From assembly GCF_003018255.1 (NCBI RefSeq), contig NZ_CP027440.1: DNA of 64,000 bases. The stretch is one strand, 5' to 3'. This DNA comes from Escherichia coli. GTDB lineage: Bacteria > Pseudomonadota > Gammaproteobacteria > Enterobacterales > Enterobacteriaceae. Position numbers and translations under genes: made by a program. Under the pieces are notes generated by a model, which saw only the letters and a program-made list of their open reading frames with translations, did no database searches and was not told the origin of the DNA. Shown here piece after piece: positions 7,814-48,842 of the stretch. Position 1 is the stretch's first letter. Each line of letters begins with the position of its first letter.

Positions 7814-9072
7814 TTAAGGCGACGGACAGAAAACTGGTAGTAGGACTGGAGATTGGTACCGCGAAGGTTGCCGCTTTAGTAGGGGAAGTTCTGCCCGACG
7901 GTATGGTCAATATCATTGGCGTGGGCAGCTGCCCGTCGCGTGGTATGGATAAAGGCGGGGTGAACGACCTCGAATCCGTGGTCAAGTGCGTACAGCGCGC
8001 CATTGACCAGGCAGAATTGATGGCAGATTGTCAGATCTCTTCGGTATATCTGGCGCTTTCTGGTAAGCACATCAGCTGCCAGAATGAAATTGGTATGGTG
8101 CCTATTTCTGAAGAAGAAGTGACGCAAGAAGATGTGGAAAACGTTGTCCATACCGCGAAATCGGTGCGTGTGCGCGATGAACACCGTGTGCTGCATGTGA
8201 TCCCGCAAGAGTATGCGATTGACTATCAGGAAGGGATCAAGAATCCGGTAGGACTTTCGGGCGTGCGGATGCAGGCAAAAGTGCACCTGATCACATGTCA
8301 CAACGATATGGCGAAAAACATCGTCAAAGCGGTTGAACGTTGTGGGCTGAAAGTTGACCAACTGATATTTGCCGGACTGGCATCAAGTTATTCGGTATTG
8401 ACGGAAGATGAACGTGAACTGGGTGTCTGCGTCGTCGATATCGGTGGTGGTACAATGGATATCGCCGTTTATACCGGTGGGGCATTGCGCCACACTAAGG
8501 TAATTCCTTATGCTGGCAATGTCGTGACCAGTGATATCGCTTACGCCTTTGGCACGCCGCCAAGCGACGCCGAAGCGATTAAAGTTCGCCACGGTTGTGC
8601 GCTGGGTTCCATCGTTGGAAAAGATGAGAGCGTGGAAGTGCCGAGCGTAGGCGGTCGTCCGCCGCGGAGTCTGCAACGTCAGACCCTGGCAGAGGTGATC
8701 GAGCCGCGCTATACCGAGCTGCTCAACCTGGTCAACGAAGAGATATTGCAGTTGCAGGAAAAGCTTCGCCAACAAGGGGTTAAACATCACCTGGCGGCAG
8801 GCATTGTATTAACCGGTGGCGCAGCGCAGATTGAAGGTCTTGCAGCCTGTGCTCAGCGCGTGTTTCATACGCAGGTGCGTATCGGCGCGCCGCTGAACAT
8901 TACCGGTTTAACGGATTATGCTCAGGAGCCGTATTATTCGACGGCGGTGGGATTGCTTCATTACGGGAAAGAGTCACATCTTAACGGTGAAGCTGAAGTA
9001 GAAAAACGTGTTACAGCATCAGTTGGCTCGTGGATCAAGCGACTCAATAGTTGGCTGCGAAAAGAGTTTTAA
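7810..9072 (+). CDS. ftsA: Cell division protein FtsA (actin-like ATPase)
   Basis: 420 aa, [35 protein letters not shown] motif; 4-bp overlap with ftsQ. Confidence 0.96.
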
Positions 9073-9132
9073 TTTTTATGAGGCCGACAATGATTACGGT
9101 CTCAGGCGACAGGCACAAATCGGAGAGAAACT

Positions 9133-10284
9133 ATGTTTGAACCAATGGAACTTACCAATGACGCGGTGATTAAAGTCATCGGCGTCGGCGGCGGCGGCGG
9201 TAATGCTGTTGAACACATGGTGCGCGAGCGCATTGAAGGTGTTGAATTCTTCGCGGTAAATACCGATGCACAAGCGCTGCGTAAAACAGCGGTTGGACAG
9301 ACGATTCAAATCGGTAGCGGTATCACCAAAGGACTGGGAGCTGGCGCTAATCCAGAAGTTGGCCGCAATGCGGCTGATGAGGATCGCGATGCACTGCGTG
9401 CGGCGCTGGAAGGTGCAGACATGGTCTTTATTGCTGCGGGTATGGGTGGTGGTACCGGTACAGGCGCAGCTCCAGTCGTCGCTGAAGTGGCAAAAGATTT
9501 GGGTATCCTGACCGTTGCTGTCGTCACTAAGCCCTTCAACTTTGAAGGCAAGAAGCGTATGGCATTCGCGGAGCAGGGGATCACTGAACTGTCCAAGCAT
9601 GTGGACTCTCTGATCACTATCCCGAACGACAAACTGCTGAAAGTTCTGGGCCGCGGTATCTCCCTGCTGGATGCGTTTGGCGCAGCGAACGACGTACTCA
9701 AAGGCGCTGTGCAAGGTATCGCCGAACTGATTACTCGTCCGGGTTTGATGAACGTGGACTTTGCAGACGTACGCACCGTAATGTCTGAAATGGGCTACGC
9801 AATGATGGGTTCTGGTGTGGCGAGCGGTGAAGATCGTGCGGAAGAAGCTGCTGAAATGGCTATCTCTTCTCCGCTGCTGGAAGATATCGACCTGTCTGGC
9901 GCACGCGGCGTACTGGTAAACATCACAGCGGGCTTCGACCTGCGTCTGGATGAGTTCGAAACGGTAGGTAACACCATCCGTGCATTTGCTTCCGACAACG
10001 CGACTGTGGTTATCGGTACTTCTCTTGACCCGGATATGAATGACGAGCTGCGCGTAACTGTTGTTGCGACAGGTATCGGCATGGACAAACGTCCTGAAAT
10101 CACTCTGGTGACCAATAAGCAGGTTCAGCAGCCAGTGATGGATCGCTACCAGCAGCACGGGATGGCTCCGCTGACCCAGGAGCAGAAGCCGGTTGCTAAA
10201 GTCGTGAATGACAATGCGCCGCAAACTGCGAAAGAGCCGGATTATCTGGATATCCCAGCATTCCTGCGTAAGCAAGCTGATTAA
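9133..10284 (+). CDS. ftsZ: Cell division GTPase FtsZ
   Basis: 383 aa, tubulin signature [10 protein letters not shown] and [13 protein letters not shown]. Confidence 0.98.
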
Positions 10285-12106: not shown

Positions 12107-14812
12107 ATGCTAATCAAATTATTAACTAAAGTTTTCGGTAGTCGTAACGATCGCACCCTGCGCCGGATGCGCAAAGTGGTCAACATCATCAATGCCATGG
12201 AACCGGAGATGGAAAAACTCTCCGACGAAGAACTGAAAGGGAAAACCGCAGAGTTTCGTGCACGTCTGGAAAAAGGCGAAGTGCTGGAAAATCTGATCCC
12301 GGAAGCTTTCGCCGTGGTGCGTGAGGCAAGTAAGCGCGTCTTTGGTATGCGTCACTTCGACGTTCAGTTACTCGGCGGTATGGTTCTTAACGAACGCTGC
12401 ATCGCCGAAATGCGTACCGGTGAAGGTAAAACCCTGACCGCAACGCTGCCTGCTTACCTGAACGCACTAACCGGTAAAGGCGTGCACGTAGTTACCGTCA
12501 ACGACTACCTGGCGCAACGTGACGCCGAAAACAACCGTCCGCTGTTTGAATTTCTTGGCCTGACAGTTGGTATCAACCTGCCGGGCATGCCAGCACCGGC
12601 AAAGCGTGAAGCTTACGCAGCTGACATTACTTACGGTACGAACAACGAATACGGCTTTGACTACCTGCGCGACAACATGGCGTTCAGTCCTGAAGAACGT
12701 GTACAGCGTAAACTGCACTATGCGCTGGTGGACGAAGTGGACTCCATCCTGATCGATGAAGCGCGTACACCGCTGATCATTTCCGGCCCGGCAGAAGACA
12801 GCTCGGAAATGTATAAACGCGTGAATAAAATTATTCCACACCTGATCCGTCAGGAAAAAGAAGACTCCGAAACCTTCCAGGGCGAAGGCCACTTCTCGGT
12901 GGATGAAAAATCTCGCCAGGTGAACCTGACCGAACGTGGTCTGGTTCTGATTGAAGAACTGCTGGTTAAAGAAGGCATCATGGATGAAGGTGAGTCTCTG
13001 TACTCTCCGGCCAACATCATGCTGATGCACCACGTAACGGCGGCGCTGCGCGCTCATGCGCTGTTTACCCGCGACGTCGACTACATCGTTAAAGATGGTG
13101 AAGTTATCATCGTTGACGAACACACCGGTCGTACCATGCAGGGCCGTCGCTGGTCCGATGGTCTGCACCAGGCTGTGGAAGCGAAAGAAGGTGTGCAGAT
13201 CCAGAACGAAAACCAAACGCTGGCTTCGATCACCTTCCAGAACTACTTCCGTCTGTATGAAAAACTGGCGGGGATGACTGGTACTGCTGATACCGAAGCT
13301 TTCGAATTCAGCTCCATCTATAAGCTGGATACTGTCGTTGTTCCGACCAACCGTCCAATGATTCGTAAAGATCTGCCGGACCTGGTCTACATGACTGAAG
13401 CGGAAAAAATTCAGGCGATCATTGAAGATATCAAAGAACGCACTGCGAAAGGCCAGCCGGTGCTGGTGGGTACAATCTCCATCGAAAAATCGGAGCTGGT
13501 GTCAAATGAACTGACCAAAGCCGGTATTAAGCACAACGTCCTGAACGCCAAATTCCATGCCAACGAAGCGGCGATTGTTGCTCAGGCAGGTTACCCGGCT
13601 GCGGTGACTATCGCGACCAACATGGCGGGTCGTGGTACCGATATTGTGCTCGGTGGTAGCTGGCAGGCAGAAGTTGCCGCGCTGGAAAATCCGACTGCAG
13701 AGCAAATTGAAAAAATTAAAGCCGACTGGCAGGTACGTCACGATGCGGTACTGGCAGCAGGTGGCCTGCATATCATCGGTACTGAACGTCACGAATCCCG
13801 TCGTATCGATAACCAGCTGCGCGGTCGTTCTGGTCGTCAGGGGGATGCTGGTTCTTCCCGTTTCTACCTGTCGATGGAAGATGCGCTGATGCGTATTTTT
13901 GCTTCCGACCGAGTATCCGGCATGATGCGTAAACTGGGTATGAAGCCAGGCGAAGCCATTGAGCACCCGTGGGTGACCAAAGCGATTGCCAACGCCCAGC
14001 GTAAAGTTGAAAGCCGTAACTTCGACATTCGTAAGCAACTGCTGGAATATGATGACGTGGCTAACGATCAGCGTCGCGCCATTTACTCCCAGCGTAACGA
14101 ACTGCTGGATGTCAGCGATGTGAGCGAAACCATCAACAGCATTCGTGAAGATGTGTTCAAAGCGACCATTGATGCCTACATTCCGCCACAGTCGCTGGAA
14201 GAAATGTGGGATATTCCGGGGCTGCAGGAACGTCTGAAGAACGATTTCGACCTCGATTTGCCAATTGCCGAGTGGCTGGATAAAGAACCAGAACTGCATG
14301 AAGAGACGCTGCGTGAGCGCATTCTGGCGCAGTCCATCGAAGTGTATCAGCGTAAAGAAGAAGTGGTTGGTGCTGAGATGATGCGTCACTTCGAGAAAGG
14401 CGTCATGCTGCAAACGCTTGACTCTCTGTGGAAAGAGCACCTGGCTGCGATGGACTATCTGCGTCAGGGTATCCACCTGCGTGGCTATGCACAGAAAGAT
14501 CCGAAGCAGGAATACAAACGTGAATCGTTCTCCATGTTTGCAGCGATGCTGGAGTCGTTAAAATATGAAGTTATCAGCACGCTGAGCAAAGTTCAGGTAC
14601 GTATGCCTGAAGAGGTTGAGGAGCTGGAACAACAGCGTCGTATGGAAGCCGAGCGTTTAGCGCAAATGCAGCAGCTTAGCCATCAGGATGACGACTCTGC
14701 TGCCGCAGCTGCACTGGCGGCGCAAACCGGTGAACGCAAAGTAGGACGTAACGATCCTTGCCCGTGTGGTTCTGGTAAAAAATATAAGCAGTGCCATGGC
14801 CGCCTGCAATAA
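12107..14812 (+). CDS. secA: Preprotein translocase ATPase SecA
   Basis: 901 aa, [26 protein letters not shown]-terminal zinc-binding [14 protein letters not shown]. Confidence 0.98.
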
Positions 14813-14833
14813 AAGCTAACAGTTGAAGTAAAA

Positions 14834-14858
14834 GGCGCAGGATTCTGCGCCTTTTTTA
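14834..14858 (+). terminator. Rho-independent terminator after secA
   Basis: GGCGCAG-gatt-CTGCGCC hairpin followed by TTTTTT. Confidence 0.7.
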
Positions 14859-14871
14859 TAGGTTTAAGACA

Positions 14872-15270
14872 ATGAAAAAGCTGCAAATTGCGGTAGGTAT
14901 TATTCGCAACGAGAACAATGAAATCTTTATAACCCGTCGCGCAGCAGATGCGCACATGGCGAATAAACTGGAGTTTCCCGGCGGTAAAATTGAAATGGGT
15001 GAAACGCCGGAACAGGCGGTGGTGCGTGAACTTCAGGAAGAAGTCGGGATTACCCCACAACATCTTTCGCTATTTGAAATACTGGAATATGAATTCCCGG
15101 ACAGGCATATAACACTGTGGTTCTGGCTGGTCGAAAGCTGGGAAGGGGAGCCGTGGGGTAAAGAAGGGCAACCCGGTGAGTGGATGTCGCTGGTCGGTCT
15201 GAATGCCGATGATTTTCCGCCAGCCAATGAACCGGTACTTGCGAAGCTTAAGCGTGTGTATGTCGGATAG
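14872..15270 (+). CDS. mutT: 8-oxo-dGTP diphosphatase MutT (Nudix)
   Basis: 132 aa, Nudix box GGKIEMGETPEQAVVRELQEEVGI. Confidence 0.95.
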   Translation: MKKLQIAVGIIRNENNEIFITRRAADAHMANKLEFPGGKIEMGETPEQAVVRELQEEVGITPQHLSLFEILEYEFPDRHITLWFWLVESWEGEPWGKEGQPGEWMSLVGLNADDFPPANEPVLAKLKRVYVG

Positions 15271-15274
15271 GCGT

Positions 15275-15470
15275 TTATGCCGCATCCAACATTTGCACAA
15301 GATGCCCGATGCGACGCTGGCGCGTCTTATCAGTATCTACAATTTTAACATGTTGATATGTAAGGTCTTGTAGGTCGGATAAGGCGTTCCCGCCGCATCC
15401 GACATTTGCACACGATGCCTGATGCGACGCTGCCCGCGTCTTATCAGGCCAGCGTCGCATCAGATAAAAT
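15275..15470. repeat. REP/BIME cluster (repetitive extragenic palindromes)
   Basis: Repeated GCCTGATGCGACGCTG..CGCGTCTTATCAGGCC and TAGGTCGGATAAGGCGTTCCCGCCGCATCCGAC units between mutT and yacG. Confidence 0.8.
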
Positions 15471-15471
15471 G

Positions 15472-15669
15472 TCACTGCTTTGGCTCTTCGCTCCAGTCAT
15501 CGCTTTCGGAAAGATCGCCACTGCTGGGGATTCGTTTTTCTTCAGCAGCCCATTCTCCGAGGTCGATCAGCTGACAACGTTTGGAGCAAAATGGCCGAAA
15601 CGGGCTGATTTCACCCCACACCACCGTTTTCCCGCAGGTTGGGCAATTCACCGTAATAGTTTCTGACAT
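15472..15669 (-). CDS. yacG: DNA gyrase inhibitor YacG (zinc finger)
   Basis: 65 aa, CPTCGK...CSKRCQ zinc ribbon. Confidence 0.92.
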
Positions 15670-44705: not shown

Positions 44706-46256
44706 ATGCAACGTCGTGATTTCTTAAAATATTCCGTCGCGCTGGGCGTGGCTTCGGCTTTGCCGCTGTGGAGCCGCGCAGTATTTGCGGCGGAACGCCC
44801 AACGTTACCGATCCCTGATTTGCTCACGACCGATGCCCGTAATCGCATTCAGTTAACTATTGGCGCAGGCCAGTCCACCTTTGGCGAGAAAACCGCAACT
44901 ACCTGGGGCTATAACGGCAATCTGCTGGGGCCGGCGGTGAAATTACAGCGCGGCAAAGCGGTAACGGTTGATATCTATAACCAACTGACGGAAGAGACGA
45001 CGTTGCACTGGCACGGGCTGGAAGTACCGGGTGAAGTCGACGGCGGCCCGCAGGGAATTATTCCGCCAGGTGGCAAGCGCTCGGTGACGTTGAACGTTGA
45101 TCAACCTGCCGCTACCTGCTGGTTCCATCCACATCAACATGGCAAGACCGGGCGACAGGTGGCGATGGGGCTGGCTGGTCTGGTGGTGATTGAAGATGAC
45201 GAGATCCTGAAATTAATGCTGCCAAAACAGTGGGGTATCGATGATGTTCCGGTGATCGTTCAGGATAAGAAATTTAGCGCTGACGGGCAGATTGATTATC
45301 AACTGGATGTGATGACCGCCGCTGTGGGTTGGTTTGGCGATACGTTGCTGACCAACGGTGTAATCTACCCGCAACACGCTGCCCCGCGTGGCTGGCTGCG
45401 CCTGCGTTTGCTCAATGGCTGTAATGCCCGCTCGCTCAATTTCGCCACCAGCGACAATCGCCCGCTTTATGTGATTGCCAGCGACGGCGGTCTGCTACCT
45501 GAACCGGTGAAGGTGAACGAGCTGCCAGTGCTGATGGGCGAGCGTTTTGAAGTGCTGGTGGAGGTTAACGACAACAAACCCTTTGACCTGGTGACGCTGC
45601 CGGTCAGCCAGATGGGGATGGCGATTGCGCCGTTTGACAAGCCGCATCCGGTAATGCGGATTCAGCCGATTGCCATTAGTGCCTCTGGTGCTTTGCCAGA
45701 CACATTAAGTAGCCTGCCTGCGTTCCCTTCGCTGGAAGGGCTGACGGTACGCAAGCTGCAACTTTCTATGGACCCAATGCTCGATATGATGGGGATGCAG
45801 ATGCTGATGGAGAAATATGGCGATCAGGCGATGGCCGGGATGGATCACAGCCAGATGATGGGGCATATGGGGCATGGCAATATGAATCATATGAACCACG
45901 GCGGGAAGTTCGATTTCCACCATGCCAATAAAATCAACGGTCAGGCGTTTGATATGAACAAGCCGATGTTTGCGGCGGCGAAAGGGCAATACGAACGTTG
46001 GGTTATCTCTGGCGTGGGCGACATGATGCTGCATCCGTTCCATATCCACGGTACGCAGTTCCGTATCTTGTCAGAAAATGGCAAACCGCCAGCGACGCAT
46101 CGCGCAGGCTGGAAAGATACCGTTAAGGTAGAAGGTAATGTCAGCGAAGTGCTGGTGAAGTTTAATCACGATGCACCGAAAGAACATGCTTATATGGCGC
46201 ACTGCCATTTGCTGGAGCATGAAGATACGGGGATGATGTTAGGGTTTACGGTATAA
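44706..46256 (+). CDS. cueO: Multicopper oxidase CueO (Tat-exported)
   Basis: Start taken at [28 protein letters not shown] (twin-arginine signal), HWHG and HCHLLEHED copper sites, Met-rich insert. Confidence 0.96.
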
Positions 46257-46319
46257 AAAGACCGTATTCGGAAATATGCCCGGATCTCTCCGGGCATGAA
46301 ACTGATGACAAACGCAAAA

Positions 46320-46425
46320 CTGCCTGATGCGCTACGCTTATCAGGCCTACGCGCAATGTATTGAATTTGCAAATGTTTTGTAGGCCGGATAAGGCGTTCA
46401 CGCCGCATCCGGCATGAACAAATCG
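46320..46425. repeat. REP/BIME elements between cueO and gcd
   Basis: TGCCTGATGCGCTACGCTTATCAGGCCTAC and GTAGGCCGGATAAGGCGTTCACGCCGCATCCGGCA. Confidence 0.8.
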
Positions 46426-46451
46426 CACGTTGTCAGCAATCTGAGCAAGCC

Positions 46452-48842
46452 TTACTTCACATCATCCGGCAACGCATAAGCCACAATATAGTCGCCCATC
46501 TTCGTACCAAATGAACCGTGACCGCCTGCGGAGATCACCACATACTGCTTACCATTCACTTCATAGGTCATTGGCGTCGCCTGACCACCCGCTGGTAAAC
46601 GACCTTGCCACAGTTTTTCACCGTTGCTCATGTTATAAGCGCGCAGGTAGTTATCTGCCGTAGCGGCGATAAACAGCACGTTACCCGCCGTGGAGATTGG
46701 CCCGCCCAGCATCGGCATACCCATATTGAACGGCACAGGTACCGGCATCGGGAATGGCATACTGTCCTGCGGCGTACCAATACGTTTCTTCCACACCACT
46801 TCATTGGTTTTCAGATCCAGCGCCGAGATATAACCCCATGCTGGCTGTTTACACGGCAGACCAAACGGTGAGAGGAACGGATTGAGCGTGACGCCATACG
46901 GTACACCGTACTGCGGCTGAATGCCGGATTCCGTACCCGTGCCTTTGGCATCTTTCGGCTGCTCCATCGGGTTGCCAGGACCGCGTGGGATCAGTTTCGA
47001 AACAAACGGCAGTGCCATTGGGTTGGCAATTGCCACTTCACGATTCGGATCAACGGAAATCCCGCCCCATTCGAACATCCCCAGGTTACCCGGGAAGACC
47101 AGCGTACCCTGTTCAGATGGCGGCGTGAAAATGCCTTCATAGCGCATCTGGTGGAACATCACGCGGCACATCAACTGGTCAAACATGGTGGCTCCCCACA
47201 TATCCGCACCGCTCAAATCTTTCGTCGGACGGAAGCTCAGTTCCGAGAATGGTTGAGTAGGGGTTACGTAATCGCCTTTGGCAGCACCTTGGGGAACCGG
47301 TTTTTCCGGGGCAGGAACCACCAGTTCACCATTACGACGATCGAGCACAAAAATGTTGCCGGTTTTCGCTGGAGCATAAATGACCGGAACCTTTTGACCG
47401 TTAACGGTGATGTCCGCCAGCGTCGGCTGTGCCGGAAGATCCATATCCCACAGGTCGTGGTGAACGGTCTGGTAGCTCCACGCCAGTTTCCCGGTAGTGG
47501 CATTCAGCGCCAGAATCGAGCTGGCATAACGTTCCTGTTCCGGTGTGCGATTACCGCCCCAGATATCCGGCGTGGTCACGCCCATCGGCAGATACACCAG
47601 ATCCAGCTTCGCGTCATAGGCCGCTGGTGCCCACGAGTTTGGCGAGTTAAAGGTAAAGGTGTGTTCGTCAGACGGGATTGCGTTAGGATCTTTCGCACCA
47701 GGATCAAAAGCCCACAGCAGCTCCCCGGTGTTGACATCAAAACCACGGATCACGCCAGACGTTTCACGGGTTGAGAAGTTATCGGTGACTGAACCGGCCA
47801 TCACGATGGTTTTATCGGTGATAATCGGCGGCGAAGTCGGTTCATACAGACCCGGTTTGGTGTCCGGCATATTGCTTTGCAGATTGAGCACGCCTTTATT
47901 GGCGAAGGTTTCGCACAGCTTGCCGTTTTCAGCGTTAATTGCAATCAGACGACCATCATTGACCGGAAGAATGATACGACGCGGGCAATCCGCCATCACT
48001 TCCGGCGAAGCAGTTTCTGCTTTGGCTTCATGATAAGAGACGCCACGGCAGGTTACATGCTGGAAGGACTCGTTGGTTTTCAGCTCAGGATCGTAATGCC
48101 ATTTCTCTTTGCCGCTGGCGGCATCGAGCGCAAACAGGCGCTGGTGAGCGGTACACAGGTAAAGGGTGTCGCCCACTTTAATTGGCGTCACTTCATTGGT
48201 GATTTCACCTGGATCGTTCGGCTGCTTCACATCGCCAGTACGGAACACCCAGGCTTCTTTCAGCTTGTGGACGTTATCAGCGTTAATTTGTTTCAGAGGT
48301 GAAAAGCGTTGACCTTCCTGATTGCGACCATAGGCAGGCCAGTCCTGATCGGCAACGGGGGAGATGGCTTCTGCTGGCGTGGTATCGGCGCTTAAGGTGC
48401 CGCTGATTTCCTGCGGATCGTTAAATCCGGCCCAGGCCAGGATACCACCGCTAATCAGCAGTGCCACCACCAGTGCGGCAACTGCGCCGCTGGCAGGAAT
48501 GACCAGGCGACGCCAGACAAACGGCAGGATCAGCCAGATGCCGAAGAAGACCAGAATGTCGCTGCGCGGAGTCAGCGCCCAGAAGTCGAAACCAACTTCC
48601 CAGACGCCCCAAATCATAGTGCCGAGCAGCAGGGCTGCGTACAGCCAAAGCGCGGCGCGTTTACTGCGCCACAGCATCCAGGCGACGCCGAGCATCACAA
48701 GGCCAGCGATAGGGTAGTACCAGGAGCCGCCAATCGCGACCAGCCAGCCTCCGCCAATGAGTAGATACAGCCCGCAAAGCGCTGCAAAAAGGGCTGTTAG
48801 CGTGACGAGTAATCGCCGCGAGCCGGTATTGTTAATTGCCAT
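46452..48842 (-). CDS. gcd: PQQ-dependent membrane glucose dehydrogenase Gcd
   Basis: Start taken at MAINNTGSRRLLVTLTALFAAL (796 aa); N-terminal TM helices plus PQQ beta-propeller. Confidence 0.95.
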   Translation of the reverse strand: MAINNTGSRRLLVTLTALFAALCGLYLLIGGGWLVAIGGSWYYPIAGLVMLGVAWMLWRSKRAALWLYAALLLGTMIWGVWEVGFDFWALTPRSDILVFFGIWLILPFVWRRLVIPASGAVAALVVALLISGGILAWAGFNDPQEISGTLSADTTPAEAISPVADQDWPAYGRNQEGQRFSPLKQINADNVHKLKEAWVFRTGDVKQPNDPGEITNEVTPIKVGDTLYLCTAHQRLFALDAASGKEKWHYDPELKTNESFQHVTCRGVSYHEAKAETASPEVMADCPRRIILPVNDGRLIAINAENGKLCETFANKGVLNLQSNMPDTKPGLYEPTSPPIITDKTIVMAGSVTDNFSTRETSGVIRGFDVNTGELLWAFDPGAKDPNAIPSDEHTFTFNSPNSWAPAAYDAKLDLVYLPMGVTTPDIWGGNRTPEQERYASSILALNATTGKLAWSYQTVHHDLWDMDLPAQPTLADITVNGQKVPVIYAPAKTGNIFVLDRRNGELVVPAPEKPVPQGAAKGDYVTPTQPFSELSFRPTKDLSGADMWGATMFDQLMCRVMFHQMRYEGIFTPPSEQGTLVFPGNLGMFEWGGISVDPNREVAIANPMALPFVSKLIPRGPGNPMEQPKDAKGTGTESGIQPQYGVPYGVTLNPFLSPFGLPCKQPAWGYISALDLKTNEVVWKKRIGTPQDSMPFPMPVPVPFNMGMPMLGGPISTAGNVLFIAATADNYLRAYNMSNGEKLWQGRLPAGGQATPMTYEVNGKQYVVISAGGHGSFGTKMGDYIVAYALPDDVK

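Follow-up and report, generated by a model that had tools for sequence, protein, structure and literature searches.

The two palindromic sites in the window, a 64,000-nt stretch of Escherichia coli DNA (contig NZ_CP027440.1), are almost certainly members of the E. coli REP/BIME repeat family that lie between convergent genes. The mutT-yacG site holds a BIME-2-type array and the cueO-gcd site a BIME-1 (Table 1). Both clusters are already known, textbook E. coli features, and they belong to repeat families that also occupy these sites in K-12 and in most E. coli, in line with an earlier sequence-only reading of this DNA that had called them ordinary for the species.

Two REP clusters occupy convergent gene junctions

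The window is E. coli. In our comparison set of 5,426 complete E. coli genomes, the genes around both sites were matched in essentially all. Strain JNE23-011 is 100% identical throughout the mutT-yacG region, and chicken strain 104 is 100% identical throughout the cueO-gcd region. Open reading frames and genome searches established that the gene names mutT, yacG, cueO and gcd assigned in the sequence-only reading are correct, and that mutT/yacG and cueO/gcd, which it had described as convergent or 3' junctions, are both convergent pairs; the other open reading frames near mutT-yacG are secA, zapD and coaE.

That reading had also placed REP units at both junctions and proposed a pattern search with REP consensus sequences as the means of checking them. 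In this search, the Y REP consensus matched at 15370-15403 (-) with three mismatches and at 46380-46413 (-) with none, and the short z consensus matched at 46322-46350 (+) with none. Neither consensus found a match in any shuffled window. The matches at both loci, including the two perfect copies at cueO-gcd, thus stand far above chance and bear out the claim. A blastn-short REP census of the 64-kb window returned significant matches only at 15269-15463 and 46322-46413; REP-like words at 54839-54874 were weak and fell inside a coding region, and we rejected them as a REP. Together, the two loci contain six REPs and one half-REP; two of the REPs reproduce the consensus perfectly and one is degenerate. 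The units are dispersed, in that a query containing the cueO-gcd region matched a median of at least 39 places per genome. Both clusters are intergenic apart from REP1, which extends into the final 13 nt of mutT. The K-12 RefSeq annotation table lists no REP features at mutT-yacG or cueO-gcd.

Table 1. Genes and repeat elements at the two junctions (window coordinates).
Feature	Position	Strand	Description
mutT	14872-15270	+	ORF and genome searches
REP1	15258-15290	-	degenerate Y type; + strand reads GTATGTCGGAT-AGGCG...CCGCATCCAAC
First S-type linker	15291-15303		head-to-head; ATTTGCACAAGAT; repeated at 15404-15416
REP2	15304-15340	+	long z (Z2); 26-nt exact match to long z consensus
Tail-to-tail linker	15341-15369		29 nt; joins the two units
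REP3	15370-15403	-	well-preserved Y; GTAG foot and stem mismatch intact
Second S-type linker	15404-15416		ATTTGCACACGAT
REP4	15417-15450	+	Z2; 34-nt long z consensus match, E = 9e-8 (blastn-short)
Half Z2 REP, inverted	15448-15465	-	16-nt exact match (blastn-short); inverted repeat
yacG	15472-15669	-	ORF; stop codon 15472-15474
cueO	ends at 46256	+	ORF
Conserved 9-bp hairpin 3' of cueO	46276-46297		ATGCCCGGA-TCTC-TCCGGGCAT; outside BIME
Left outer flank	46298-46321		present or absent together with BIME-1
Z1 REP	46322-46350	+	short z, perfect consensus copy
L linker	46351-46379		29 nt; putative IHF-type core AATTCAATACATTG on minus strand
Y REP	46380-46413	-	perfect consensus copy
Right outer flank	46414-46451		abuts gcd stop; dispersed repeat
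gcd	46452-48842	-	ORF; stop codon 46452-46454

The mutT-yacG site holds a BIME-2-type array

BIME-2s are composed of y and z2 REPs with a short linker, arranged in tandem, and BIME-1s of y and z1 REPs flanking a long linker, L, in which an IHF site is common (PMC3333891, PMC2817692, PMC6379681, PMC4550694). The naming of z1 and z2 is inconsistent in the literature, PMC3479197 writing z1 where PMC3333891 has z2, and we fixed the z labels by comparison with reference BIME-2s of K-12, one at sucB-sucC and others flanking rayT on either side, all of which contain the long z REP and match the mutT-yacG array exactly in layout.

Repeat finding revealed a tandem duplication with a 113-nt period in the mutT-yacG cluster, which is built from two Y-S-Z2 units followed by a half-REP and spans 15258-15465. 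The sequence-only reading had located the cluster correctly and set its extent at 15275-15470, thereby missing the degenerate first Y REP. We identified this element, REP1, from its 113-nt repeat relationship with REP3, a partial blastn-short match and alignment with K-12 and O157 Sakai. The first S-type linker occupies the same position as the short linkers of the K-12 reference BIME-2s. Both Z2 REPs end abnormally: the tail of REP2 (15326-15340) reads CTTATCAG-TATCTAC in place of CTTATCAGGCCTAC, that is TATCTAC instead of the usual GGCCTAC, and the CTAC tail of REP4 is replaced, reading GGCC-AGC. The tail-to-tail linker contains a predicted IHF site, with a perfect match to the core consensus, TATCAACATGTTA, at 15346-15358 (-). 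In the alignment, the corresponding K-12 linker is only about half identical, yet the same IHF core is kept.

At the distal end of the array, the half-REP pairs with the left arm of REP4 in a hairpin of 17 nt that is 94% complementary and lies 8 nt from the yacG stop codon. This hairpin dominates the predicted RNA fold on both strands. It (15419-15463) competes with the normal REP stem, and its K-12 version is less complementary.

The array shares with other BIME-2s (for example K-12 sucB-sucC, the rayT flanks and REP325/naRNA4) the alternation of Y and Z2 REPs, the short head-to-head linker, the tandem arrangement, the position between genes and a copy number that varies between strains. By contrast with these elements, its tail-to-tail linker is long (29 nt), carries the perfect IHF core and is closer to the L/l motifs; its first unit is decayed and overlaps the mutT coding sequence; and neither of its z tails has the normal GGCCTAC. 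Because of the long tail-to-tail linker and the IHF core, the array may be filed as an 'atypical' BIME rather than as a strict BIME-2.

The cueO-gcd site holds a BIME-1 within a larger mosaic element

The cueO-gcd element resembles the class variously called BIME-1, RIB or RIP: one Y and one Z1 REP are placed tail-to-tail around an L linker of about 30 nt with an IHF-type core, and the element is present in single copy, has repeated outer motifs and sits at the 3' ends of transcription units. It differs in the L linker, which is 7 nt shorter than that of K-12 in the alignment and than the ES036 consensus. Scored against the Rfam ES036/CssrF model, the linker reaches 31.7 bits, below the 37.6-bit threshold, and aligns apart from the 7-nt gap. 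Its candidate IHF-type core, ATTCAATACATTG, has one mismatch to WATCAANNNNTTR; we take this core to resemble the RIB core.

Upon comparison of alleles, we found that the unit of gain and loss extends beyond the REPs. The left outer flank is missing from N68- and NCTC9022-type alleles, and strains without BIME-1 can miss the whole 154 nt at 46298-46451, including both non-REP flanks. The right flank, searched as a 39-nt query, was found in 5,411 genomes, with a median count of 5 places in each. Because the flanks are lost along with the REPs and the right flank is itself dispersed, the REP pair is part of a larger mosaic element. The sequence-only reading had placed the cluster at 46320-46425, and the REPs are indeed there, whereas the repeated element is 46298-46451 with its non-REP flanks. 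It had listed both sites as REP/BIME clusters, which they are; they represent two different BIME families, and the mutT-yacG cluster begins with a REP that overlaps the mutT coding sequence.

Outside the element, the 46276-46297 hairpin is invariant in a five-allele alignment that includes BIME-less alleles. A direct repeat, GGCATGAA, at 46290-46300 and 46409-46419 brackets BIME-1 together with its left flank, and the Nissle-type allele looks like a deletion between the two GGCATGAA copies.

Both sites vary between strains

At mutT-yacG, the inter-unit linker of the window, searched in a 46-nt context, was found in 73 of the 5,426 genomes, many of them from poultry, and the K-12-type linker, which marks a two-unit allele, in 1,856 of the 5,426. 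Inspection of individual strains showed one unit in O157 Sakai and 88.0502, and diverged versions of the window's allele, with the same TATCTAC tail, in E09 and AR_0017. At cueO-gcd, an empty site with an intergenic distance of 46 nt was found in 1,697/5,426 genomes, and an allele that lacks the REPs and keeps the right flank, as in Nissle 1917 and ATCC 25922, in 94/5,426. Strain GN05476 has an extra Y REP at this site, duplicated together with the right outer flank. Copy-number and presence variation of this sort has been described for BIMEs (PMC3333891). With clear length alleles at both sites across the 5,426 genomes, the proposal that these repeats are useful for strain typing proved sound.

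The tail of REP2 resembles a footprint of IS621

IS621 is a bridge-RNA-guided element of the IS110 family, whose natural target is the 11-nt z-REP tail ATCAGGCCTAC with a CT core (PMC11208160). We found no IS621 element within the window. The only intact target there is a perfect ATCAGGCCTAC at 46340-46350, the tail of the cueO-gcd Z1 REP. The mutT-yacG REP tails, ATCAGTATCTAC and ATCAGGCCAGC, do not match the target. Thus, compared with IS621 insertion sites, both potential targets at mutT-yacG are destroyed, one of them by an apparent remnant of the IS621 right end.

The origin of this remnant is suggested by strain 88.0502, in which IS621 is inserted in the mutT-yacG z REP, the junctions reading CTTATCAGGC-CT/TGTAT...1,281 nt...AACAGTAT-CT/AC. 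In a comparison of the junctions, the REP2 tail consists of REP sequence as far as CAG, followed directly by the terminal bases of the IS621 right end. From this sequence evidence, we consider it probable, with some room for doubt, that the REP2 tail (15326-15340) is the footprint of a lost IS621 and that such footprints recur at REP loci. Both the REP tail and the IS right end contain a CAG, and a deletion running from one CAG to the other would leave TAT-CT where GC-CT had stood. Since this scar destroys the IS621 target, a scarred REP tail would record past IS621 occupancy and would be immune to re-insertion.

We searched the comparison set with a scar-tail query built so that ordinary z REPs could not seed matches. 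At least 364 of the 5,426 genomes contain a TATCTAC-type tail, with a maximum of 5 places per genome. Other scarred loci are dppA-rtT, ygfZ-trhA and yaaX-yaaA, none with IS621 nearby. The yaaX-yaaA locus differs from K-12 in the scar tail and nowhere else. At dppA-rtT, 304 genomes carry IS621 at the site; the flanks of occupied and scarred alleles are identical there, and exactly the 1,280 nt between the two CAGs separate them. Two further candidates were set aside: the match at eco-mqo is another kind of tail, reading TATACGC, and the IS621 of strain E2865, on the rtT side, has a different left flank, pointing to a rearrangement rather than a simple insertion. The left flank of the E2865 element comes from the gldA region and includes a short z REP, which suggests rearrangement between IS621 copies or REP targets.

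The tail could instead be an ordinary mutation, unrelated to IS621, that spread among REPs by gene conversion, a process that REPs are thought to undergo. Two observations are in keeping with this alternative. First, none of the 5,426 genomes carries IS621 next to the window-type linker, which would be the occupied intermediate. Second, IS621 excision was not seen in a published plasmid assay (Kusumoto 2011, as cited in bioRxiv 10.1101/2023.06.07.543989); given that result, IEE-assisted excision is not supported as the source of the scar. Gene conversion does not readily explain, however, why the same replacement of GC by TAT, one nucleotide longer, is found at no fewer than four unrelated loci and coincides with the terminal bases of the IS621 right end, why at yaaX-yaaA it is the sole difference from K-12, or why dppA-rtT alleles that share the same flanks carry either IS621 or the scar. 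We therefore regard spread by gene conversion as rather doubtful and favor the footprint of a lost IS621. A published account describes IS110 excision as 'scarless', and we found no earlier description of such an IS621 footprint in the literature searched, whose scope stopped short of Choi et al. 2003 (J Bacteriol 185:4891). As a detail, the apparent scar is of modest weight and possibly new.

Predicted activities of the REPs

REPs are substrates of RAYT (REP-associated tyrosine transposase, also TnpA-REP), which requires a 5' GTAG, a stem mismatch and a nearby CT cleavage site (PMC3333891, PMC3479197). The GTAG/CTAC foot is present in REP2 (CTAC), REP3 (GTAG) and both cueO-gcd REPs. It is lost from REP1, which reads GTAT and has 1 nt deleted in the bulge, and from REP4, in which AGC replaces TAC. 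Because of this loss, REP1 and REP4 are probably no longer RAYT substrates. Judged by sequence, all three RAYT features are found only in REP3 and in both cueO-gcd REPs. The suggestion in the sequence-only reading that these repeats are potential transposase targets is supported in two ways: REPs as a class are RAYT substrates, and an IS621 sits in the mutT-yacG REP of strain 88.0502. As a refinement, several REPs of this allele lack the GTAG/CTAC foot on which both RAYT and IS621 depend.

By analogy with characterized REPs, RAYT would maintain and reshuffle these non-autonomous repeats. At the DNA level, the BIME-2 may attract gyrase and the BIME-1 linker may bind IHF: the BIME-2 class is a preferred site of gyrase binding and cleavage (PMC6379681), and IHF binds the BIME-1 linker (PMC2817692). 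The gyrase binding proposed in the sequence-only reading thus fits the mutT-yacG array as a member of its class. In the supplementary gyrase Topo-seq lists searched (PMC6379681), we found no entry for mutT, yacG or cueO. The gene adjoining the BIME-2, yacG, encodes a DNA gyrase inhibitor and thus neighbors a member of the class of preferred gyrase sites, which is probably a coincidence.

When transcribed, the REPs would fold into 3' hairpins, and these would shield or attenuate the converging mRNAs. Compared with shuffled sequences, the predicted RNA folds of the two strands have z = -7.1 and -8.7 at mutT-yacG and z = -3.8 and -5.1 at cueO-gcd. A more specific role would follow if unit 2 (15373-15450) were not a passive repeat but a functional gene for an naRNA4-type sRNA that binds HU and condenses the nucleoid. 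Unit 2 matches the Rfam naRNA4 model (RF02564) over its full length on the + strand, the sense strand for mutT, with 73.5 bits against a gathering score of 59.5; REP3 forms the first half of the match, and naRNA4 itself corresponds to a single Y-linker-Z2 unit from the REP325 BIME-2 (PMC4550694). This Rfam model in effect fits any BIME-2 unit, however, so that the match speaks for family membership and not for function. Moreover, unit 1 scores 48.5 bits, under the 59.5-bit threshold, the activity described in PMC4550694 is assigned to REP325, and we found no promoter for unit 2, the sole promoter-like site in the scanned region facing away from it, and one such site being about as many as shuffled sequence yields. 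An sRNA gene at this position is accordingly improbable. Elsewhere in the window, three other Rfam families matched above their thresholds: STnc40 at 14788-14857 (+; 83.2 bits), which covers the 3' end of secA and the spacer between secA and mutT, PssrA at 9052-9141 (+; 104.9 bits) and tp2 at 30621-30734 (-; 103.4 bits).

Finally, the palindromes do sit at convergent gene 3' ends, and no intrinsic terminator was predicted in either intergenic region, but the perfect or near-perfect identity to REP consensus sequences, the tens of related places per genome, the lack of a T-tract after the hairpins and the gain and loss of whole units between strains leave virtually no room for gene-specific terminators or chance inverted repeats in place of a repeat family.

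A REP sets the end of MutT

REP1 encodes the mutT codons Tyr-Val-Gly and the stop codon TAG (15268-15270), which lies in the REP stem, and the protein ends in ...KRVYVG. MutT is 132 amino acids long in the window and in O157 Sakai and 129 in K-12. The reading frame stops in K-12 at the TAG within the REP's GTAG foot and in O157 Sakai at the TAA of GGATAAGG. A single base in the GTAG foot, TAG or TAT, thus sets the length of MutT (window 15256-15270). Because REP1 supplies the last codons and the stop codon, a nominally 'extragenic' REP fixes the end of the protein.

According to Liang et al. 2015, as cited in PMC12306157, a REP that lies less than 16 nt from a stop codon lowers translation of the gene upstream of it. 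By analogy, this effect would apply to both mutT and yacG. At cueO-gcd, the distances to the stop codons are 65 and 38 nt, and the effect would therefore not apply there.

Implications

The mutT REP offers a clean natural system in which the effect on translation reported for stop-proximal REPs could be tested. Both sites are simple and informative presence/absence markers across E. coli lineages. If the IS621 footprint is confirmed, it would mean that the element behind a widely used bridge recombinase can be lost with a scar in nature, and it would offer a way to trace past IS621 activity.
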